A DNA stretch of 64,000 nt. It comes from Chloroflexota bacterium (lineage in GTDB: Bacteria > Chloroflexota > Dehalococcoidia > CAUJGQ01). The DNA is taken from NCBI GenBank assembly GCA_036741355.1, contig DAINSK010000004.1, forward strand, positions 65,289 through 129,288. Reading direction: 5' to 3'. The notes below the pieces were generated by a model. It was not told the origin of the DNA and made no database searches. It worked only from the letters and a program-made list of their open reading frames with translations. Shown in pieces: positions 1,813-60,652 of this stretch. Both the position numbers and the translations under genes were made by a program. Position 1 is the first letter of the stretch. Each line of letters begins with the position of its first letter.

Positions 1813-3186
1813 CTACAGCTTTAGCAGCGAGTGAAAGCGCTTCTCGCTTCGATAGGGACCTACGATCGCTACTGACAGCCGGTCGCCGCGCAGGATATCC
1901 TCGGCGACGCGCTGGAGATCGGCAGTTGTGACCTTGTCAACGTCCTCGATCACCTCTTCGACCGTCCGCACCTCGCCGAATAACAGCTCTTGCATACCCA
2001 TCCAGCCAGAAACGTTTCGCGTGTCTTCCATCCGCAGAAACGTCCGGCCTTTCGTCAGCTCTCGGGCCTTCTCGAGCTCGGAATCGGGGAAGCCATCCCG
2101 CGTCCGGGCCAGCTCTTCCAGAATGGCGCTCACCGCCTCCGGGGCTTTTTTGGTATCGACACCGGCATAGACGTTGAAGCTGCCCGTGTCCAGGTATTTG
2201 CTCGTGTAACTGTGCACGTCGTAGCAAAGGCTGCGTTTTTCGCGGAGCTCCTGGAAGAGACGGCTGCTCATCCCCTCGCCGACGAGGATGCTGAACAGAT
2301 CGATTGCGTACCGATCCGGATGGCGGCTGGAATAACCGCGCACGGCCATGCTTATGTGCGCCTGCTCCGTCCGCTTGGCTTTCAGCGCCAGCCTGGAGTC
2401 CTGCTGGCAGCCGATGGCCGGAAACCAACTCGTGGACTCGCCGGCCTCCCAGTCACAGAGTTCCCTGTCGATGAGTTCGACGACCTCTTCATGCGTGATA
2501 TTGCCGGCGACACTGACGACGATGTTGTTGGGAACGTACTGGTGGTGGAGATACTGAAGCGCATCGTCGCGGTCGATGCTCAGCACCGTGGATTCGAATC
2601 CTGCTACGTCCCAACCCAGCGGTTGATCGGGGAACATGATCTCGTCGAGCAGCGCCTCAGCCAGTTGCGCCGGGGAGTCGGCAACCGACCGCAACTCTTC
2701 GAGGATGACGGAGCGCTCTTTTTCGACCTCGGCTGGCTCGAACAATGGGCGGCGGAGCATATCGAGCAGGATGTCTGCGGCCAGCTCGAAGTGCGGGCGG
2801 GCGACTTTTACGTAGTAGACGGTCAGCTCCCGGTCGGTGCCGCCGTTTAGCAGGCCGCCTACGCCGTCCACTGCCTCAGAGATCGCGCGCGCTGTCGGCC
2901 GCTTACTCGTGCCTTTGAAGAGCAGATGCTCGACGAAATGGGAGAGTCCCGCCTGCTTCCTGGTTTCGTAGCGGGAGCCAGCGCCAACGTAGATGCTGAT
3001 GCTGACTGAGCGTGTGTGAGGCATGGTCTCGGTGAGGATACGCAGGCCGTTGGACAGCGTGGTGCGTTGATGCAAACAGGTCCGCCCTCTCATCGACAAA
3101 TACGAGGACGAAGGCGAGCCGTGCGGCTCGCCTTCGCTGCCACATTCTATTGGCCGGTTGAAGAGCCGGTCAAACCATGCGGCCAT
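1813..3186 (-). CDS. M16 family zinc peptidase (pitrilysin/insulinase-like)
   Basis: Inverted zinc-binding motif HFVEHLLFKG (HxxEH) near the N-terminus, length about 420-457 aa, two-lobed M16 organisation. Start uncertain (3186 or ATG at 3093). Confidence 0.85.
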   Translation of the reverse strand: MAAWFDRLFNRPIECGSEGEPHGSPSSSYLSMRGRTCLHQRTTLSNGLRILTETMPHTRSVSISIYVGAGSRYETRKQAGLSHFVEHLLFKGTSKRPTARAISEAVDGVGGLLNGGTDRELTVYYVKVARPHFELAADILLDMLRRPLFEPAEVEKERSVILEELRSVADSPAQLAEALLDEIMFPDQPLGWDVAGFESTVLSIDRDDALQYLHHQYVPNNIVVSVAGNITHEEVVELIDRELCDWEAGESTSWFPAIGCQQDSRLALKAKRTEQAHISMAVRGYSSRHPDRYAIDLFSILVGEGMSSRLFQELREKRSLCYDVHSYTSKYLDTGSFNVYAGVDTKKAPEAVSAILEELARTRDGFPDSELEKARELTKGRTFLRMEDTRNVSGWMGMQELLFGEVRTVEEVIEDVDKVTTADLQRVAEDILRGDRLSVAIVGPYRSEKRFHSLLKL

Positions 3187-3253: not shown

Positions 3254-3802
3254 TCAATTCTCGACGACGGTGCTCTTGATGATTTTATAACCGCTATTCA
3301 GGCAATCGCGCTCCGAGCGCAGGGTATTCGCCGCATAGCTCCTGGGCACGACTACGTAATTGAACTGCCAGAGCGGGCTATATTTCTCCATACCGGGAAC
3401 CGAGTCATAGATGTTCAGTTGCCCCGCCGGCCGCTCAGGCTCGCGAACCAATTTGCCGCCTTCATCCAGCGCTAATTCAAAGACGAGCTGATATTCCTGC
3501 GCTACTTTCACCTTGGTGACGTCGATGTCGACCTCGCCAAGCTCGATGGCGAAGACGATCTTGCCATCGAACCAGACGCGCTCCATCTCCTGCACGTACG
3601 GGTTGTTATAGGAAAGGCGTTCGACACCGCTAGCGGTGTAGCCGGAGACCGACGCACCGGTGCTGACTTCGCCGTCGTCGAACCGCCAGTTTGGTCCTTC
3701 CTGCATGGACATCGGAACCGCATTTGCCCCAGGAATCAGGCTCCCCACGGTGAAGGACCCGCGATCCGGGGCACCAGATGCCGATTGGCTCGAATCGCTC
3801 AT
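3254..3802 (-). CDS. Hypothetical 182-aa protein with N-terminal encapsulin targeting-peptide-like motif (candidate encapsulin cargo)
   Basis: ATG at 3802 preceded by AGGAGA at spacing 6. Ser-rich disordered N-terminus contains DRGSFTVGSLIPG, matching the family-1 cargo-loading peptide consensus (LTVGSL / SLxIGSL). The remainder has normal protein-like composition with no recognisable family. It is divergent from the encapsulin shell gene. Confidence 0.6.
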   Translation of the reverse strand: MSDSSQSASGAPDRGSFTVGSLIPGANAVPMSMQEGPNWRFDDGEVSTGASVSGYTASGVERLSYNNPYVQEMERVWFDGKIVFAIELGEVDIDVTKVKVAQEYQLVFELALDEGGKLVREPERPAGQLNIYDSVPGMEKYSPLWQFNYVVVPRSYAANTLRSERDCLNSGYKIIKSTVVEN

Positions 3803-4017
3803 GACCGGTCTCCTGTGAGTAATGGATTGGTCGGGTCGCGGGCAGCTCGCCGGGCCGAGCCGATCGTAGCTGCTGAAGCGCCGCTCCTTATACTCCCATT
3901 GGCGTTTCCACAGCCACGCGAGTCGTTTCTGACCCCGCGGCGTCCTTTATTAGTCGCCGGCAGTGGCCTACGATGAGTTGGAACGCCGCCGAGACTTGAA
4001 GGAGTGATTCGAAAAGC

Positions 4018-4884
4018 GTGGACTTCCTCATGCGCAGCCAGGGGCCCCTGCGGCCCCAGCAATGGCGGGCCCTAGACGACACCGTAATCCGAATCGCGCG
4101 GGAGTCGCTGACCGGCCGGCGGTTCATCTCCATTTTTGGTCCGCTCGGACCCGGTGTTCAGGCGGTTCCGGATGATCGTTTCCGCGTCAGCGAGGACGGT
4201 GACGTAGACCTGCTTGGTGAGAGCGACGCTGCCAGCATCCAACTCTCCGTCCGCCGCTACCTGCCGATCCCCTTGATCTACAAGGACTTCGTCTTACCCT
4301 GGCGGGATCTCGAGACGAGCTCGCAGTTCGGCAGCCCGCTCGACACCAGCGGTGCGGCCGCGGCCGCGGCCGCGTGCGCCCATACCGAAGACGACCTCAT
4401 CTTTAATGGCAACCTGGCCCTCGATCTGCCCGGTCTGCTCACCGTGGAGGGATCGCAGCGCCTCGCACTCGGCGATTGGAACGTCGCCGGCGAGGCGTTC
4501 GGTGCCATTGTCCAAGCCACGGAGGCGCTTGTTGGCGGGCATTTCTTCGGGCCGTTTACGGTCATCACCAGCCCCGTGTTGTTTGCGCAGTTGAATCGAA
4601 TGTTCGAGAACAGCGGCACACTGACCCTGGAACAGATCCAGAAACTCGTCCGTGGTGGCGTATATCAAACGTCGGCGCTGCCCGAAGGCACTGCGGTCGT
4701 TATCGCCGCCGCGGACGAAAACTTGGATCTGGCGCTCGCCCTGGACATGACGGTTGCTTATGAGGCCGCCGAAAACATGAACCACCGCTTCCGCGTTGTG
4801 GAAGCGGTGGTCTTGCGCATCAAACGCCCGCAATCGATCGTGATTCTTCAGAATCAGATATCGGCGCCGCGGCGGCGCTCCTAA
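4018..4884 (+). CDS. Family 1 encapsulin nanocompartment shell protein (linocin M18-like, HK97 fold)
   Basis: Clear similarity to known family-1 encapsulins (M. tuberculosis/T. maritima type): RRFISIFGPLGPGVQAV aligns to RRVVDV..P.G...AV, DDLIFNGN to EDRxIxxG, and GHFFGPFTVITSPVLFAQL to GVDGPYSxLLSxxxYTKV. Length about 285 aa. Start is GTG 4018 or ATG 4030. Confidence 0.8.
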   Translation: MDFLMRSQGPLRPQQWRALDDTVIRIARESLTGRRFISIFGPLGPGVQAVPDDRFRVSEDGDVDLLGESDAASIQLSVRRYLPIPLIYKDFVLPWRDLETSSQFGSPLDTSGAAAAAAACAHTEDDLIFNGNLALDLPGLLTVEGSQRLALGDWNVAGEAFGAIVQATEALVGGHFFGPFTVITSPVLFAQLNRMFENSGTLTLEQIQKLVRGGVYQTSALPEGTAVVIAAADENLDLALALDMTVAYEAAENMNHRFRVVEAVVLRIKRPQSIVILQNQISAPRRRS

Positions 4885-4980: not shown

Positions 4981-5448
4981 GTGGCAGATACGCAGTCGGT
5001 CATAACGGACGAGATGCGGAAACTGATCGGAGTGGAATCCGAGCCGTGGACGGTTGAAGTTGAAAAGACCGACGTTCGTATGTTCGCTCGTTCGGTTGGC
5101 CATACCGATCCGATCTTCTATGACGAGACGGAAGCGAAGCAACGCGGATACCCATCGATTGTGGCCCCGCCCGGTTATCTTGGCACGCCAATCTTCATGC
5201 CGGGGAGACCCCAACGCGGCGCGGCCCAGTTGAATATCCCCTATAACCGCCGACTCAACGGCGGCACCGAAATCGAGTACTTCGACGATATCTGCGCGGG
5301 CGACGTGCTCAACGCAACCTCGCAGATCGCCAAAATCGAAGAGACTTCCGGCAGGCTGGGCCCGATGGTCATCGTCACGACCGAGACGATCTACCGACGG
5401 GGCAACACGATCGTAGCTAAATTACGTGGTACCGGTATTCGCTATTAA
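4981..5448 (+). CDS. MaoC-like (hotdog fold) dehydratase N-terminal-type domain protein
   Basis: GTG start preceded by GAGGAG. Sequence resembles FAS1-type/HadA-like N-terminal hotdog dehydratase domain proteins (about 155 aa). Confidence 0.65.
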   Translation: MADTQSVITDEMRKLIGVESEPWTVEVEKTDVRMFARSVGHTDPIFYDETEAKQRGYPSIVAPPGYLGTPIFMPGRPQRGAAQLNIPYNRRLNGGTEIEYFDDICAGDVLNATSQIAKIEETSGRLGPMVIVTTETIYRRGNTIVAKLRGTGIRY

Positions 5449-5775
5449 GGGTTATTCGCCAATGCGTAAGATTCGAGGTATAATTCCAGTACCAGAACCG
5501 TCCTCCGCCAAACGATAGACCGGCTTCACGCCCGGTCCTCATCAGGTGTTAATCGTCTGACTACCGAATACGATTCACAGTTTCTCCGATCGAATGACCA
5601 ATAAACGGGGGGGCATATTCGCGTCGCGGCCCTCTTCGGCCTATTTGACAGTTCGACACCGTGTCATGCGGTGCTTTAAAGAGTAGTTCGCGTCTTACAC
5701 GTCGCGCCGTTCAACCGAGCCGGGGGCGCCGACGCCGGTGCCTGCGCTCGCGGAACCGTATCACAGGAGTAGATC

Positions 5776-6828
5776 GTGCCAGGACTAAACGGGGCTCAGG
5801 GCCGCCGCCGGACAAATCAAGCGCGCGTGGGACAGCCACGCGATCAGGACGGCCGGCCGCAAGGGGCGGTTGAGCGCCGAGGCGGTCGCACCTACAAGCC
5901 GGGGTTGCATGATTGGACACCCGGAGCGGCGGGTCGGCGGGCCGACCGGCCGGGCGATGGCGCCACCGGTCGATTTCAGCGACCGTCCGGAAACGACAAC
6001 AAATCCGAGTCTCGTGGAGCGGCCGGTTTCAGGCGGTCGGCGTCTGGACGCCCCTCCCAGGGGGCCGAGTTCGGACCACGTCGGATGAGCGGCTTACGCC
6101 AGTCGGCGCCGGATTCTGCTCCGCGGCAGGGCTCGATGGGCGGTCCGGCGGCGGGATCCCAGGGTGGCGAAAACCGCGGTGGCCCGCCTCCGGCCGGTGA
6201 AGGTCGGGGACCGGCCCGCGTCTGGCAGCCGAAAGGGACGGTGCGCACCGGTATGACGGGAGGGGGTACCCGTTACGGGAGCGAAGAACCGCGCGACGGC
6301 ACCGACCGTAGCCGTTACGGCCGCTATGCGCAGGTTGTTCGACCACAGTCCGGCGGATCGTCTGGGCGCGGAGGCGAAAACGGCAACCAACAAGACGTTC
6401 AGGTTCTCCCGCGGAGCGGGCGTCCGGTTGTTGATCGCCCATACCGGCAATCCATTGGCCTGGGCAACCGGAACCCGCGGCCGGCCGCTCAACGCCCACA
6501 GTCCTCCGGTCCTGGTCGCCGGCCGGGATTCACCCCGCGACCGCAGGGCCGGCCCGCACAGCGCGTGGGGACCACCGGCTCTCCCAACGCACGCGTTACA
6601 GGTCGTCAGTACGCCGATCTAGATCACGTCGATGACGCCGGATCAGGCGACTTCTCGTTCCGTGATGGCACAGACGAGGTTGCTTCATCCGGGGAGCTCG
6701 CGCGGGCTACTGTGTCCCGCCACGCGCAGCGACAACTTATCGCTGATCCGGGCGTGGGCGTATCCGAGGAACAGCCATTTCAACCCGTCCGGACCCATAG
6801 CCCGCGAAGACGCACTCCTAGAACGTAG
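5776..6828 (+). CDS. Hypothetical Arg/Gly/Pro/Gln-rich intrinsically disordered protein (350 aa)
   Basis: GTG start with AGGAG at spacing 6. The whole ORF is low-complexity (RGG-like, PRPQ-rich) and no globular domain is recognisable. Third-codon positions are mostly G/C, consistent with coding in this genome. Preceded by a ~320-bp relatively AT-rich leader. Confidence 0.35.
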   Translation: MPGLNGAQGRRRTNQARVGQPRDQDGRPQGAVERRGGRTYKPGLHDWTPGAAGRRADRPGDGATGRFQRPSGNDNKSESRGAAGFRRSASGRPSQGAEFGPRRMSGLRQSAPDSAPRQGSMGGPAAGSQGGENRGGPPPAGEGRGPARVWQPKGTVRTGMTGGGTRYGSEEPRDGTDRSRYGRYAQVVRPQSGGSSGRGGENGNQQDVQVLPRSGRPVVDRPYRQSIGLGNRNPRPAAQRPQSSGPGRRPGFTPRPQGRPAQRVGTTGSPNARVTGRQYADLDHVDDAGSGDFSFRDGTDEVASSGELARATVSRHAQRQLIADPGVGVSEEQPFQPVRTHSPRRRTPRT

Positions 6829-10857: not shown

Positions 10858-11166
10858 ATGACCATTGAGACCCGCGATCAAAGCGCTATGGAGCTTCGAC
10901 CGGCACTCAATCCTGGCCTTGACCTGTCCTGGTTGGACGGTGGGGATGGCTGGGGAACCAGGGCAGAACCGGGACGCAAAGGGCTAACGCTGGAAGGGAT
11001 TGCTATCGGCCGCTACGGCGATATCCCTGAAACGTCGCGCAACTATACGCTGCGGTTGCGCGGGACCCGTCAGCGGGCAGGGGCCCTACGCGTTACTTCC
11101 TGCAGGTCGCCCGAGCGGCGTCAACGGATGGACCCGGCGCTCGCCGTGTACCTGGACGAAAAGTAG
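10858..11166 (+). CDS. Hypothetical small protein, paralogous to the N-terminal domain of the downstream gene
   Basis: ATG 10858 with GGAGCGG upstream. LSWLDGGDGWGTRAEPGRKGLTLEGIAIGRYGDIPE aligns to FVWMTETDTEWGVRARPGPHGLRLADINIGSYCEVPD of the next ORF. Confidence 0.5.
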   Translation: MTIETRDQSAMELRPALNPGLDLSWLDGGDGWGTRAEPGRKGLTLEGIAIGRYGDIPETSRNYTLRLRGTRQRAGALRVTSCRSPERRQRMDPALAVYLDEK

Positions 11167-11188
11167 ACCCGCATCGTCGGGAGGTGTC

Positions 11189-12271
11189 ATGATCACCGAA
11201 TCCCACCCCGCCGGCGGCCCACCCGCACAAGATCGCATGGTTTTTCCACAGGCGCGCAGTTTTGTCTGGATGACCGAGACGGACACCGAGTGGGGCGTAC
11301 GTGCCCGACCTGGGCCACATGGGCTGCGTTTGGCCGACATCAACATCGGCAGCTATTGCGAGGTCCCGGACGTCTGGCCTTACGACACCGAGATCGCACG
11401 CGGCTCTTCGCCCAACCCGGGTGCGGAAGCGATGGGCTACTCGATCTTTGAAAAGCAGGAGGTTTGGGCACCGAGCGCCGCCGACCTGTACGAAGACGCA
11501 ATCCAGGGACGCTGGGCGCCGGCAACCGATATCCAGTGGTCGACGCTCAGTCCGTTGGCACGCGAGATCGAGGCGGCAGTATGCCAGCTCTGTACGGAGC
11601 TCAGCCAGCGGTCGTATGCGGCCGGAGTGGCGCTGGCGGGCTGGCTGCAGCACATCAGCTACGGCTTTATCGAGGTCAAGAGCTATCTCGCCACCCAGAT
11701 CTTCGCACATTTCCGCCATGCCGAAGTGTTTCGTAAACGGGCGCTCGCAAACGGCGGCGGGCTTGGCATCGAGCCGCCCAACAACTTCGTGCAACGCTAC
11801 ATGGAGTCGCTGAAATACACGGAAGCGTTAGTCGCCATCGGCGTGCTTGATGCTGCCTTCCTCGACGTACTGTTTGCCGCCGGCGACGAACTAGCCCAGA
11901 ACGAGGTGGAACGCGACATTTATCGGCGGTGCCTGGCCGACAACCGTCGCCACCTTCAATACGGCGCCGAGCACCTCGCCTGGGTGGTCGAACACGCACC
12001 GCACCGTGCGACTGAGCTCCAGCGCTACCTGCGGAAAGCCGAGGCCGCGCTTGTTCTGGACCTGGAGCACCCACTGTCATCCGAGCCGTTGATCGTGCTG
12101 TTTGGCGGGGGGCTTGACGCCGTCGATCCCGGGGCCGCGAGGCTGCATGCCTTGCGCCGCGCCCAGGTGGAGCGCTACCTGGAAATCCTCGAGCAGGCGG
12201 GGTTGAGCCACGCGGAGTTTGGTCTGCACTCGCACCTGGCGGCCTACGTCGAGGATGCGGTTCCAGTGTGA
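11189..12271 (+). CDS. Hypothetical protein (N-terminal ~70-aa domain plus all-helical C-terminal domain, possibly ferritin/heme-oxygenase-like)
   Basis: ATG 11189 preceded by GGGAGG at spacing 4. The C-terminal region is helical with E/H-containing motifs (HFRHAEVF, EHLAWVVEH). The fold assignment is inference only. Confidence 0.55.
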   Translation: MITESHPAGGPPAQDRMVFPQARSFVWMTETDTEWGVRARPGPHGLRLADINIGSYCEVPDVWPYDTEIARGSSPNPGAEAMGYSIFEKQEVWAPSAADLYEDAIQGRWAPATDIQWSTLSPLAREIEAAVCQLCTELSQRSYAAGVALAGWLQHISYGFIEVKSYLATQIFAHFRHAEVFRKRALANGGGLGIEPPNNFVQRYMESLKYTEALVAIGVLDAAFLDVLFAAGDELAQNEVERDIYRRCLADNRRHLQYGAEHLAWVVEHAPHRATELQRYLRKAEAALVLDLEHPLSSEPLIVLFGGGLDAVDPGAARLHALRRAQVERYLEILEQAGLSHAEFGLHSHLAAYVEDAVPV

Positions 12272-12325
12272 GTACGTGAGGCACGCGAATCTATCCCAAT
12301 TCAGGCGCCGCGGTCCGCAGATCAC

Positions 12326-13504
12326 GTGAATAGACGGAGCCCGTTGAACGCCTTGATGCCTCCAGAACGCGATCGTGGGCTGGTCGCTTTTTCGCAGCGG
12401 CTGGTCTGGCCGCTCGGCGCCCTGCTGCTCATATTCGTGCTGTTGCGGCTTTCGCCGCTGCCGCTGAAACACGTCTTCATCGTGTTATTCACTTCTATCC
12501 TGCTGGCCGCCGCCGTGGCGCCGCCCGCTCGGTTCATGGCCCGCCGCCGCGTTCCTCGCGGCGTGACGATCCTGGTGATCTACCTCCTAGCGGTGCTGAT
12601 TCTGATCGGCGTCGTGGCCCTTGTCGTGCCGCTGGTCGTTTCCGAAGTAGATGCGTTGCGCGCATCGCTGCCCAATTACGTCGATAACGTTCAGCGCGAG
12701 ATCGCAAAAATTGCGCCCAATCAGGCCGAAAGCTTTTCGAGCGCCAGTGTGGTCAACCGGCTTTCGGGCGAACTGGGGAGTGTTGCCGGAGCGCTCACCG
12801 ATATCCTCGTCCGGGTGGTCTCGCTGAGCATCAGTGTCATTCTCATCCTCGTCATCGCCTTTTTCCTGGCAGTCGAAGAAGACTTCGTCGCGCTGGTGAT
12901 TCGGCGGTTTGTACCGCCGCATCGACGCCCGCAAGCGCAACGCCTCCTCGGCCGCATGGGAACTCGCCTCGGTCAATGGGCACGGGCTCAGATGCTGCTC
13001 GCACTGTTTTTCGGCGTCGCGTTCGGAGCTGGTTTGCGGGTCGCGGGCGTGCATTATGCCGTCACGCTGGGCGTCGTGGGCGGCGTGCTCGAGATCATCC
13101 CCTATGTCGGCGGGTTTATTACGGTCGCGCTTGCCGTTCTCGTTGCGCTGACCCAAAACCCCATCCTGATAGCGATCGTGGTCGGCTGGTACACCGTCGT
13201 TGTTGAAATTGAGGGCCACGTATTCGCGCCAAAGCTTATGGACAGGGTGCTCGGTATCCATCCGCTCGTCATCGTGGTCGCACTCTTCCTGGGTGGCGAA
13301 TCGCTCGGCATCCTCGGCGCTTTGCTGGCCGTGCCGATCGCCATCGTTTTCCAGGTCCTGCTCGATGAGTTCTACTCATTTCAGGACTCGCATGATGAGA
13401 ATGAGCCGGCTGCGCCAATTCCCGGCCAACCCGAACGGCAGCCGAATCTGCAGGAGGATGGGCGCGATCAGGCTGTCACCGAATCCGTGGCCGGCCGAGG
13501 ATAG
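12326..13504 (+). CDS. AI-2E family transporter (PerM/YdiK-like, UPF0118)
   Basis: Seven to eight TM helices and the characteristic C-terminal conserved region ...EIIPYVGGFITVALAVLVAL...VPIAIVFQVLLDEF. Confidence 0.85.
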   Translation: MNRRSPLNALMPPERDRGLVAFSQRLVWPLGALLLIFVLLRLSPLPLKHVFIVLFTSILLAAAVAPPARFMARRRVPRGVTILVIYLLAVLILIGVVALVVPLVVSEVDALRASLPNYVDNVQREIAKIAPNQAESFSSASVVNRLSGELGSVAGALTDILVRVVSLSISVILILVIAFFLAVEEDFVALVIRRFVPPHRRPQAQRLLGRMGTRLGQWARAQMLLALFFGVAFGAGLRVAGVHYAVTLGVVGGVLEIIPYVGGFITVALAVLVALTQNPILIAIVVGWYTVVVEIEGHVFAPKLMDRVLGIHPLVIVVALFLGGESLGILGALLAVPIAIVFQVLLDEFYSFQDSHDENEPAAPIPGQPERQPNLQEDGRDQAVTESVAGRG

Positions 13505-13530
13505 TCTGGTTGGCCTGCCGGTTCAGTAGC

Positions 13531-13551
13531 CCGCGCAGGCGGGCTTTGTCA
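13531..13551 (+). terminator. Possible intrinsic terminator downstream of the AI-2E transporter gene
   Basis: CCCGCGCAGGCGGG hairpin followed by CTTTGTC. Confidence 0.25.
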
Positions 13552-13651
13552 GATGAGCCTGCGACTTTAGTCGCCGGGCGACGGCGCTCTTGTCGGAATT
13601 CCGAACTGCTCTGACCGAATTGCTATAACGTACTGCCAAGGGGGATCGGTC

Positions 13652-13840
13652 ATGCCAGCAGTGCGGTGCGAGTTTTGCACCGAGCGACCGCGCGAAGAGG
13701 TGGCTGTGATGAAGTGGCGCGGTGAGGAACGAGAACGGCTGACGATTCAGTTGTGCGCCAAACATCACGGCCGAATTGCGAGAACCGGCGCGCGCGGATG
13801 GGAACACAAGGACTATCGGTGGAAGATAGGCTTCTGGTAA
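13652..13840 (+). CDS. Hypothetical small Cys/His protein (zinc-ribbon-like)
   Basis: 62-aa ORF with AGGGGGA RBS. CEFC...C..HH arrangement. Confidence 0.35.
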   Translation: MPAVRCEFCTERPREEVAVMKWRGEERERLTIQLCAKHHGRIARTGARGWEHKDYRWKIGFW

Positions 13841-13855
13841 GCGCCGCGCACAGAC

Positions 13856-14338
13856 CTATTCGAGCACGATTTCTCCGCTTTTGCCGCCGCTCTTGTGAAC
13901 GAGGCGAACATCGGTCAGCCGCATGCCCCGATCGACCGCCTTGCACATGTCGTAAACAGTCAAAGCCGCGACCGTGACCGCGGTTAGCGCCTCCATTTCG
14001 ACGCCCGTTTTCCCGGCGGTCTTCACGGTGGCCGAAATGTCGACCGAGTGATCGGCTTCGTTTGGCTGCAGGTCGACGTCGATGCCGCTGAGCAGCAGCG
14101 GGTGGCACATCGGGATCAGCTCGTGGGTGCGCTTGGCTGCCATCATGCCCGCGATCTGCGCTGTCGTGAGCACGTTTCCCTTGCTGATCTCTCCCGCGAG
14201 GATCAGCGCCAGCGTCTCCGGCAGCATGATTACCCGCCCCCGCGCCGTTGCTACGCGCGCCGTGTCGGCCTTTGCAGTCACGTCCACCATCCGTGCACGG
14301 CCTTCGGCGTCGATGTGGCTGAGTCGGTCCTGGGTCAT
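13856..14338 (-). CDS. moaC: Cyclic pyranopterin monophosphate synthase MoaC
   Basis: [30 protein letters not shown]...[25 protein letters not shown]...VYDMCKA is a strong MoaC signature. ATG 14338 with GGAGG RBS. 4-nt ATGA overlap with the rdgB stop. Confidence 0.9.
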
Positions 14339-14955
14339 ACTTCCTCCCGGAAGGCACGGTCGTCCCGCAGCTTCTCCAGCACCTCGACGGCGGCGCGCAC
14401 GGCTTTTGAGCGAGAGCTGATGCGGTTCTTTTCGTCGAGACTCAGTTCGGCCATGGTCAGATCGCGGTCGGGTAGCAGGAAAATTGGGTCGTACCCGAAG
14501 CCGTCCCAACCCCGCGGATGCATGGCGATGCGGCCCTCGCACACACCGTCGGTCTGCCACGAACGGCCATCGGGCGTGGCAATCACGATCGCCGCGCGGA
14601 AGCGGGCACGGCGCTTCTCCTCGGGAACGACTTGCAACTCCCGTAATATTAGCTCCGCCTTGCCCTCGGCCGAGAGGTCGATTCCGCCGTAGCGGGCCGA
14701 GTGTACGCCCGGCCGGCCGCCAAGCACATCGACCTCTAGCCCCGAATCGTCGGCTAGGGCTGCCATGTTTGCTTCCCGCGCGAACGCATGCGCCTTGATC
14801 GCGGCGTTCTCGGCGTACGTCGTACCGGTCTCGGGTGGATCGAGGTCCAGCGAGATCTGGGCCGGCGTCAGGACCCGCCATCCGCGCGGCTCCAGCAGCG
14901 CCCGTATCTCCCGGGCTTTGCCGGGATTGCTGGTTGCAAGCAGCAGCCGCGGCAC
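14335..14955 (-). CDS. rdgB: Non-canonical purine NTP pyrophosphatase (RdgB/HAM1 family)
   Basis: [14 protein letters not shown]... and FGYDPIF motifs. 206 aa. GTG start. Confidence 0.9.
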
Positions 14956-14958
14956 GGC

Positions 14959-16470
14959 TTAGCTTCCTTTCGTCGCTGCGGCGAGCGCTGGCACCAGACA
15001 TCCCGCGTCGGGCGAGCCCCAACCCGTGGGGAAGTCCCATCCCGCAAGTGCGGGCTCGCCGGGGTCGTTGCGAAATCGATTGGTTCCCTGGGTCACGTCG
15101 TGGAAGCATTTGCCCGAGGAACCGAGCTGATAGAGCGCGGGGTTGATGTTGCCGAGTCCCTTGCCCGCTGCCTGGTTCGCCAGAGCGACGATGGCGGCCC
15201 AGATCGGCGCGGACGCGCTCGTACCACCGGAGACCCCCGGGTGCGCGCCGCGGTCGGGAGTCGCGGCGAAATAAAGAAGCAGACCTGCGCCGAGAGCGGC
15301 GACGTCGGCCTCGCCGCGTTTGCCGTTCAATAGCTTCTGGAACGAGGGAGGCAGGACGCTCTGCTCCGCCGGTTGGTCGTAAAAGATGCTGATGCCGCTG
15401 CCGCTGGCGACTGAGCTGGAATCGAGCACGGTTTCCGATCCGTAACTGCCGTTTGGGTTCAAACGCAGCATTGTGCCGCCGACGACGGTGATCCACGGAA
15501 CTCCCGCCGGCCAGTCCGCCGACCGAACGGTTGCGACACCGCCCGAGAGCGTATCGGCCAGCGGGCCATGGTCGCCGCTGGCCGTCACAATCGTGACGCC
15601 CTTCCGGCCGGCTTGCTGGTAGAACGCGTCGAAATCGGCCCGCATCGCGGCCCCGTCACTGTCGTCGAGCAGGTTTTCGCTGGTGCCCCAGCTCTGCGAA
15701 ATCACGGAACCAAGCTTGTTGTCCACCGCGTAACGTTCGAGCGCGAGGAATTCCGGCATGCCGTCCACGCCTTCCGTTTCCGAAACCGGGCTGGCCAGTA
15801 CGACGATACGTGCTCCCGGCGCAATGCCATGGACCCACTCGGCGTCGAGCGTCGTTTCGCCCGCCCAGCCCCTGGTGTCAGCCGGGTCGATCTCTTTGAA
15901 GTCGGTACCCAGTGGGTAAAGCTCGATGAGGTCGGCGTCGGGCAGGCCCATCGCATTGCTGAATGCGGCCAGATCCTCTTTCAGCGTGGGGCTGCCAAAG
16001 GAGACGATGATGACGACTGTTTGCCCGGTCCCATCGATGCCGTTGCGGATCAGCCCGTCAACGTTATAGGCAGCGCGTACCTGTGCCGGTTCGTAACAGG
16101 GCACTTTGAGCAACGAGATGCATTCCTGGGTCGTTGGAACGGCGTCGCGGTGCAGCAGCTCTTCCGCCGAGCTCGCGGGCTCGTGGACAGGCCGCGGTGC
16201 CGGCGATATGGCCCGGCCCGGCGCCGATGTCGCCCGGATTTGCGTGCCCGGCGTAGGCGATATGATGACCGGCGTGCTGCCGGCCGCCGCATTCGCAGAC
16301 CCGGTCGGTGCAGTCGTGACGGCGGCAGCCGCGGTCGTGGATCGCGGTTCCACTGTGCCGGCTGGCTGCTTAGACTCGCCACCCGTACACGCCGCGACAG
16401 CCAGTATGACCGCTAGAAAAGCAGCCGCCCGGCAGGCCCTTGAGATCGTTCGTCGGGGGGCAATTACCAC
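14959..16470 (-). CDS. S53 family peptidase (sedolisin/kumamolisin-like) lipoprotein with pro-domain
   Basis: Lipobox ILAVAAC, then a pro-kumamolisin-like activation region. SGDHG (oxyanion Asp) and [13 protein letters not shown] (catalytic Ser) motifs. Confidence 0.8.
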
Positions 16471-60575: not shown

Positions 60576-60652
60576 CCCGGGATAGCTCAGTTGGCCAGAG
60601 CAGCGGACTGTAAATCCGCGTGTCCGTGGTTCGAATCCACGTCCCGGGACCA
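60576..60652 (+). tRNA. tRNA-Tyr (anticodon GUA), class I (5-nt variable loop), C1:G72 acceptor pair, A73 discriminator, encoded CCA
   Basis: Manual cloverleaf: acceptor CCCGGGA/UCCCGGG, U8, D-stem GCUC/GAGC, anticodon stem GCGGA/UCCGC with loop CUGUAAA (GUA at 34-36), variable GUGUC, T-arm CGUGG-UUCGAAU-CCACG, A73, CCA. The antisense ORF 58722-60653 in the track reads GFEPRTRG through it. Confidence 0.8.

Follow-up and report, generated by a model that had tools for sequence, protein, structure and literature searches.

An N-terminally peptide-tagged, DUF7482-like protein as the probable cargo of a minimal two-gene family-1 encapsulin system in Chloroflexota

In a 64,000-nucleotide stretch of a soil Chloroflexota genome (Dehalococcoidia; contig DAINSK010000004.1 of assembly GCA_036741355.1, positions 65,289 to 129,288; hereafter the window), a family-1 encapsulin shell gene stands divergently beside a gene for a 182-amino-acid (aa) protein that carries the motif TVGSL near its N terminus. 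We propose that this protein is a genuine peptide-targeted cargo and that the two genes make up a minimal two-gene family-1 encapsulin system, a reading that we consider very likely. The argument is carried by the conservation of the peptide among homologues of the protein, by its agreement with targeting peptides of the closest solved shells, and by the linkage between peptide-bearing homologues and shell genes. More tentatively, and as a proposal that may well prove too broad, the pair could represent a new nanocompartment class, with a DUF7482-type domain as its sole dedicated cargo, recruited from a free-standing cytoplasmic family through an N-terminal TVGSL and serving a chemistry beyond iron, peroxide, and sulfur.

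RESULTS

The shell gene and its nearest solved relatives

The shell gene (4018 to 4884, forward strand) encodes 288 aa from a GTG start, with GAAGGAG at 3998 to 4004. Its product matches Pfam PF04454 (Linocin_M18) at E = 3e-68 (230.1 bits; threshold, 24.3) and the NCBIfam equivalog NF041155 (encap_f1) with 254.8 bits for a cutoff of 100. These scores, far over both cutoffs, identify it at the sequence level as a family-1 encapsulin shell, and they uphold what an earlier note, made from the DNA letters alone, had called a clear case. In a phmmer search of the PDB, the best solved-structure match was EncA of Myxococcus xanthus (4pt2; E = 9e-83, residues 2 to 283 aligned). The two proteins are about 46 to 50% identical over their full length, their alignment is ungapped from residue 2, and the N-helix region is strongly conserved in sequence. 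The same search matched the shell of Quasibacillus thermotolerans (6nj8), which has a triangulation number (T) of 4, at E = 4e-64, while the T=1 Thermotoga shell scored only ~1e-19. By sequence similarity, the window shell belongs to the EncA/Q. thermotolerans branch of large shells and so probably has T=3 or T=4 architecture.

The cargo gene and its N-terminal peptide

The candidate cargo gene (3254 to 3802, reverse strand) is separated from the shell gene by a divergent intergenic region of 215 bp (3803 to 4017), in which we found no consensus promoter and no informative palindrome. A Shine-Dalgarno-like AGGAGA read from the sequence (3809 to 3814, reverse strand) precedes the ATG with a 6-nucleotide spacer, which supports the upstream start that takes in the peptide. 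Both open reading frames (ORFs), their divergent arrangement, and this ribosome-binding site had been pointed out in the earlier note and were found again on the sequence. The 182-aa protein begins MSDSSQSASGAPDRGSFTVGSLIPG and comprises an N-terminal targeting peptide, a short linker, and a DUF7482-like beta domain. Its N-terminal segment (residues 1 to 34; 3701 to 3802, reverse strand), which holds the peptide and a linker of about 11 to 16 residues, is predicted to be disordered because the AlphaFold2 predicted local distance difference test (pLDDT) lies below 50 across residues 1 to 53. The peptide core FTVGSLI occupies residues 17 to 23 (3734 to 3754, reverse strand), with FTVGSL at residues 17 to 22 (3737 to 3754). 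The description of a disordered N terminus containing a targeting-peptide core was thus accurate.

For comparison, we assembled 160 loci encoding a cargo homologue, 80 from species-representative genomes and 80 from metagenomes, all of the sequences being metagenomic or metagenome-assembled. One locus (L001) is the same sequence as the window, so that the other 159 form the independent set. Cargo status was judged by the operational definition of PMC8346489, and the peptide type [L/F]-x-[V/I]-G-S-L was taken from bioRxiv 10.1101/2025.09.13.676036. When the window is translated in all six frames (127,996 residues), TVGSL appears a single time. The 160 loci, with 2.9 million six-frame residues, contain it 52 times: 51 copies lie at the N terminus of a cargo homologue, and the remaining copy belongs to an ORF that runs antisense to an alanyl-tRNA-synthetase-like gene. 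The background frequency is hence ~1 per 2.9 million residues, and the occurrence of N-terminal TVGSL by chance is excluded.

Among 46 distinct peptide-bearing homologues, every residue of TVGSL is kept in 45 to 46 sequences, so the GSFTVGSL segment singled out in the earlier note is conserved at its core; the consensus derived from these sequences is P-R-[L/F/W]-TVGSL-[LIVM]-G-[LV]-P-[LQ]-G. The linkers that follow are Pro/Ala-rich, freely varying in sequence, and 15 to 48 residues long (median, 33; 16 in the window protein). A disordered N terminus with a fixed TVGSL and a variable linker corresponds to the build of an encapsulin targeting peptide and its linker, placed N-terminally. The opposite end of the protein is also conserved, with a terminal VEN whose E is invariant and whose N is present in at least 90% of 120 sequences. 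At E < 1e-3, homologues form 1333 database clusters, all of them either without a name or "hypothetical," with Chloroflexota and Dehalococcoidia metagenome-assembled genomes (MAGs) as the named sources, and about 95 of the 120 closest clusters carry the peptide.

Agreement with validated targeting peptides

Residues 17 to 23 (FTVGSLI) are identical over all seven positions to a stretch in the targeting peptide of the Q. thermotolerans IMEF cargo. That cargo ends in HKKKGFTVGSLIQ, 13 residues that its authors dropped in order to remove the targeting peptide, and they modeled TVGSLIQ in the density of the shell (PMC6668986). In EncA, the EncC peptide EKRLTVGSLR (core RLTVGSL) was modeled at about 2.5 Å; its L, V, and L fill three hydrophobic pockets, the EncA contacts are R28, R34, D38, D213, and D243, and basic residues at the C-terminal end of targeting peptides bind acidic patches of the shell (PMC10402063). 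The solved shells closest to that of the window are known to bind [L/F]TVGSL (PMC6668986, PMC10402063). Mapped onto 22 distinct cargo-adjacent shells, the EncA contacts R34 and D243 are invariant (22/22), R28 is R or Q in 20, and no acidic residue occurs at D38 or D213 (see Discussion). An N-terminal TVGSL has been documented on ferredoxins that copurify with IMEF encapsulins as secondary cargo (PMC8346489).

Linkage between peptide and shell

A shell partner was scored when a family-1 shell gene lay within 600 bp of the cargo homologue. The N-terminal peptide was present in 54 of the 160 homologues, and 44 of these 54 had a shell partner, versus none of the 106 peptide-less homologues (66 of them with adequate flanks; Fisher p = 4.6e-30, a value that overstates independence because the peptide-bearing sequences form nearly one clade, perhaps reflecting one or two ancestral events). 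Among the ten peptide-bearing loci without a shell, the flanks were too short to decide in six. The two genes are divergent in most shell-linked loci, with a gap of about 150 to 250 bp, and in seven the cargo gene lies upstream in the same direction; linkage that outlasts such changes in gene order argues for selection over frozen synteny. Across the 23 shell-containing loci used for the analysis of neighbors, conservation is confined to shell and cargo, and none of the other neighboring ORFs has a terminal peptide-like motif. The conserved peptide and the shell adjoining 44 of 54 peptide-bearing homologues, which extend the co-occurrence with encapsulins to other genomes, support, at the level of comparative genomics, the part of the earlier note that proposed a new cargo class with an N-terminal peptide; its protease link and its view that the protein matches nothing are not supported (see below).

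Traced from the shell side, shells with 83, 52, and 51% identity to that of the window (L161, L164, and L165) each adjoin a peptide-bearing cargo homologue. Those with 50, 50, and 47% identity (L163, L166, and L167) adjoin double-ferritin-like or EncFtn-like cargos ending in GWTVGSLLGRPQA, GWTVGSLLGRKQV, and RPTVGSLFGELQS, and encapsulin-targeted double ferritin-like proteins with a C-terminal FTVGSL have been described (bioRxiv 10.1101/2025.09.13.676036). Several N-terminal versions of the peptide, e.g., LTVGSLLGQPQGR, are nearly the same string as the C termini of these ferritin-like cargos. One shell lineage would thus appear to recognize TVGSL[L/F]G both on the C termini of ferritin-like proteins and on the N terminus of the cargo described here.

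Three more distant shells (L168, L169, and L170; 5001 to 5880, 45 to 46% identity) are orphans flanked by rpsT and a holA-like gene (DNA polymerase III delta), two of them labeled Blastocatellia; the lack of an adjacent cargo implies that cargo is encoded elsewhere in those genomes. Another shell, L162, is taken up in the Discussion; its neighbors are genes for an FAD oxidase and an Fe-S (CCG) protein resembling glycolate oxidase and the C terminus of an RND-type transporter.

The peptide-less homologues come from Chloroflexota and Actinomycetota and stand in lineage-specific contexts. Several of their loci, including those of Limnocylindria MAGs, lie in a housekeeping cluster with ORFs that by eye resemble IspDF, CysS, and an rRNA methyltransferase. 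Among the Actinomycetota, L005 (8664 to 9872) has an upstream ORF with a SufB-like C terminus and a partial molybdopterin oxidoreductase-like ORF, and L013 (2510 to 4762) and L111 (6578 to 8830) have a downstream 750-aa ORF resembling a molybdopterin oxidoreductase, again as read by eye. We considered these neighbors as a functional clue and set them aside: they show only lineage-specific synteny, and the Actinomycetota loci are too few to support an inference.

The cargo domain

The folded core of the cargo (residues 35 to 182, 148 residues; 3257 to 3700, reverse strand) was modeled by AlphaFold2 with a pLDDT of 94.4 and a predicted template modeling score (pTM) of 0.87, as mostly beta structure, with several strands and one short helix. 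No PDB sequence matched the cargo at E <= 10, and the modeled fold has no counterpart there. When the family profile was compared by hhalign with 15 repeat units excised from multi-repeat DUF7482 proteins, residues 77 to 182 (3257 to 3574, reverse strand) matched with a probability of 99.5% and E = 3.5e-23 over 100 columns. Because this profile-profile match spans one entire repeat unit, the cargo body is a lone DUF7482-type unit, with an additional beta/hairpin segment of ~40 residues before it. The kind of profile search that the earlier note had suggested thereby reveals a relative for a protein body that it had thought to match nothing.

More direct comparisons point the same way with lower scores. 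The cargo reaches 13.4 bits against the Pfam DUF7482 model (PF24298), below the threshold of 27.5, and weak DUF7482 matches fall in the same region in 21 of 35 family members (best E value, 0.0055). A profile search of 1.8 billion representatives returned 309 relatives, many of them long proteins with two to six matches to the C-terminal 60 residues, and the family profile matches bona fide multi-repeat DUF7482 proteins at E values down to 1e-58. These proteins also carry a type IX secretion tail or pyrroloquinoline quinone (PQQ) propeller, cupredoxin, Lipoprotein_15, DUF4399, or Kelch domains. Two of the relatives (P0163 and P0168), apparently secreted, combine two DUF7482 units and a C-terminal plastocyanin-like cupredoxin with Lipoprotein_15 repeats or DUF4399, an architecture suggestive of DUF7482 working together with copper and redox modules.

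Compared with the known family-1 cargo classes (DyP, Flp/EncFtn, IMEF, hemerythrin, bacterioferritin, and rubrerythrin), the cargo gave no Pfam or NCBIfam match, the weak DUF7482 match being the only hit. Invariant or near-invariant in the family are NNP, E-R-V-W, KVAQEYQ, N-I-Y-D, P-G-M, Y-S-P-x-W-Q-F-N, P-R, D-C, and the C-terminal E-N. Read by eye, neither the cargo nor its peptide-less homologues show a hydrophobic signal sequence.

Neighboring genes and other features of the window

As had been noticed before, the cargo gene is followed on its own strand by an M16 zinc peptidase gene (1813 to 3186, reverse strand), which encodes both M16 domains and an intact HFVEH zinc motif; the gap is 67 bp. 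A promoter-like TTGACC-18 nucleotides-TAGAAT (3173 to 3144) falls inside the annotated 5' end of the peptidase gene, upstream of the catalytic domain, so that translation may actually begin at an internal Met. On the other side, a gene for a FAS1-like/HadA-like (MaoC-fold) dehydratase subunit (4981 to 5448, forward strand) directly follows the shell gene. Both were considered as components of the system and rejected: the M16 peptidase was near the cargo gene in none of the 159 independent loci, and the dehydratase was found in none of them.

A six-frame peptide scan of the window revealed no further terminal peptide-like motif that would mark another cargo, and tblastn with the three ferritin-like cargos of the sister systems (L163, L166, and L167) found no homologue in it. 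A Pfam scan covered the neighborhood, i.e., ten ORFs between positions 490 and 12271, one of which (11000 to 12271, forward strand, 423 aa) had no Pfam match at E <= 0.01. The earlier statement that the usual cargo types are absent holds within the reach of the peptide scan, of Pfam on these ten ORFs, and of tblastn, which is less than an annotation of every ORF of the 64 kb. A single Rfam match to CRISPR-DR28 (13527 to 13550, reverse strand; 37.3 bits, just over the threshold of 35) is probably spurious, no direct repeats being present in 12300 to 16000. The only other Rfam match of the window is a tRNA gene (60576 to 60649, forward strand).

DISCUSSION

Several observations weigh against our reading of the 182-aa protein as a genuine encapsulin cargo. 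The evidence is wholly computational and comes from metagenomic or metagenome-assembled sequences. The position of the peptide departs from the C-terminal placement usual for family 1, in which loading peptides are "almost always" C-terminal according to a 2024 review (PMC11664910). In no structure is a shell seen with a bound peptide from the N terminus of a cargo, and the cargo body would exit the groove from the end opposite that of C-terminal peptides. Of the five side-chain contacts in EncA, two (D38 and D213) are not conserved, these positions being never acidic in the 22 distinct cargo-adjacent shells; their loss would fit a co-adaptation of the shell to an N-terminal peptide without trailing Arg-Arg, which would predict such a change. 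The public Joint Genome Institute (JGI) gene call for the identical protein (P0001) starts at Met31 (window position 3712) and yields 152 aa without the peptide. In four loci whose flanks are long enough to judge (L008, L020, L033, and L103), no shell lies within 6 to 10 kb (~5 kb downstream for L020) of the peptide-bearing homologue; the shell that takes up these homologues may be encoded at a distance, or the partnership may have been lost. The peptide of L008 is a variant, MTVGQL. Conversely, the L162 shell (5001 to 5873, 56% identity) has no cargo homologue beside it, with only 0.5 kb of downstream sequence available. Peptide-bearing sequences fall into one main clade and a small second one in a neighbor-joining tree. 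Finally, the cargo domain has no recognizable catalytic or metal-binding signature and no invariant histidine.

The main rival reading is that the 182-aa protein is encapsulated only as a secondary or accessory cargo, e.g., a scaffold or a shuttle for electrons or ligands like the ferredoxins of IMEF systems, with the main cargo encoded elsewhere. The sole established precedent for an N-terminal TVGSL is a secondary cargo (PMC8346489), some M. xanthus cargos are encoded away from the shell gene, the domain is without enzymatic signature, and no more than 64 kb of the genome falls in the window. We nevertheless regard this as unlikely, given that the protein is the sole gene conserved beside the shell in the 23 loci and the sole neighbor with a terminal peptide-like motif, and that the window contains neither a second TVGSL in any frame nor a homologue of the sister ferritin-like cargos. 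It is much harder to believe that the protein is not encapsulated at all, the motif serving another purpose and its adjacency to the shell being a synteny inherited within one Chloroflexota clade. Since peptide-bearing sequences are nearly monophyletic, one ancestral arrangement could yield the correlation; however, the motif is identical to structurally characterized targeting peptides of the nearest shells, it is fixed inside a disordered segment whose flanks vary freely, its background frequency is very low, the linkage persists despite changed gene order, and the ferritin-like cargos of sister shells carry this peptide too.

The remaining alternatives concern the neighbors and the nature of the shell. 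A protease-associated compartment with the M16 peptidase as part of the system, which the earlier note had envisaged, draws on the short distance, the shared strand, and the intact HFVEH of that gene. We give it hardly any credence: only shell and cargo are conserved, no M16 gene stands beside the cargo in the 159 other loci, the M16 protein has no terminal peptide-like motif, and the promoter-like site in its 5' end suggests a separate transcription unit. That the shell gene is instead the remnant of a prophage HK97-type capsid, as weak sub-threshold Pfam matches to Major_capside and DUF6260 might suggest, appears practically negligible in view of the match to the NCBIfam encapsulin equivalog well over its cutoff, the identity to EncA over the full length, N-helix region included, and the cellular character of the Pfam-matched neighbors (M16 peptidase, dehydratase, response regulator, and major facilitator superfamily transporter).

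For the two-gene system with the 182-aa protein as its cargo, we propose the following model, in which physical encapsulation, binding mode, and shell size are inferred. During shell assembly, the N-terminal FTVGSLI (residues 17 to 23) would bind the luminal groove that the N-helix and the P-domain form, F17, V19, and L22 filling three hydrophobic pockets as seen for RLTVGSL in EncA. The short flexible linker would then tether the 148-residue beta domain inside the lumen of a shell of probably T=3 or T=4. The cargo domain itself would be a single cytoplasmic copy of a DUF7482 repeat that otherwise occurs in tandem in apparently secreted proteins. As to its function, our best guess, on which we place little weight, is that the cargo binds or sequesters a ligand, a metal, or a redox cofactor rather than acting as a classical enzyme, because DUF7482 domains have copper and redox partners and the cargos of sister shells handle iron.

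If this reading is correct, the protein would be a structurally unprecedented addition to the short list of family-1 cargo types, and its peptide would be the first at an N terminus to mark a core cargo instead of an accessory protein. It would also provide the first cellular context for DUF7482, a repeat found with cupredoxin and PQQ-dehydrogenase domains, and the engineering of encapsulin nanoreactors would gain N-terminal tagging as a further option. Among soil Chloroflexota, the system is widespread. Its peptide-less and peptide-bearing relatives, together with sister shells whose cargos carry the peptide at the opposite terminus, constitute a natural experiment on recruitment into compartments. 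The gene call P0001 further illustrates that automated choice of start codons can conceal N-terminal targeting peptides in cargo surveys.

Comparison with known systems

The 2021 census of encapsulins divides family 1 into DyP, ferritin-like, IMEF, bacterioferritin, fusion, and cytochrome systems and leaves 90 systems unassigned, as "Minor" operons for which neither cargos nor targeting peptides are defined (PMC8346489). The text part of its supplement contains no Chloroflexi entries (PMC8346489). In the literature searched on encapsulin TVGSL peptides, N-terminal targeting, cargo types, metagenomes, and DUF7482, we found neither a description of this cargo nor any mention of DUF7482.

Outside encapsulins, the cargo domain resembles the repeats of Pfam DUF7482 (PF24298), with which it has in common the signature GQ-NI-D-VPG...YS-LW-V--V-VP-DY-ANT-RS. 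Typical DUF7482 proteins have 2 to 6 tandem units and are apparently secretory, whereas the cargo has one unit; the repeats have VNCP where the cargo ends in VEN, and KVAQEYQ and C167 are invariant in the cargo family specifically.

The closest solved shell is EncA of M. xanthus, which accommodates EncB, EncC, and EncD (T=3/T=1; PDB 4PT2, 7S5K, and 8VJO), and the RLTVGSL of EncC has the same core as the family consensus PRLTVGSL. The M. xanthus peptide is C-terminal and followed by Arg-Arg, whereas that of the window family is N-terminal and followed by G-x-P-x-G and the linker. Likewise, the acidic D38 and D213 of EncA are replaced in the window-type shells, and ferritin-like or flavin-binding cargos contrast with a DUF7482-like beta domain. 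The Q. thermotolerans IMEF system (T=4; PDB 6NJ8) has a related shell, the identical FTVGSLI, and an N-terminal TVGSL on its ferredoxins (PMC6668986; PMC8346489). Its core cargo is tagged C-terminally and its N-terminally tagged protein is accessory, whereas in the window family the N-terminally tagged protein is the sole conserved partner; moreover, the one belongs to Bacillota and the other to Chloroflexota, and the cargo folds are unrelated.

Finally, the double-ferritin-like and EncFtn-like cargos of the sister shells (L163, L166, and L167; bioRxiv 10.1101/2025.09.13.676036) are held by shells 47 to 50% identical to that of the window. Their ends WTVGSLLGRPQA, WTVGSLLGRKQV, and PTVGSLFGELQS contain the same TVGSL[L/F]G that is N-terminal in the window family, with the difference that the peptide sits at the opposite terminus of a four-helix-bundle, ferroxidase-type protein. 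The compartment family and its loading principle are therefore known, and what would be new is the class of cargo, its fold, and the position of the peptide on a core cargo.

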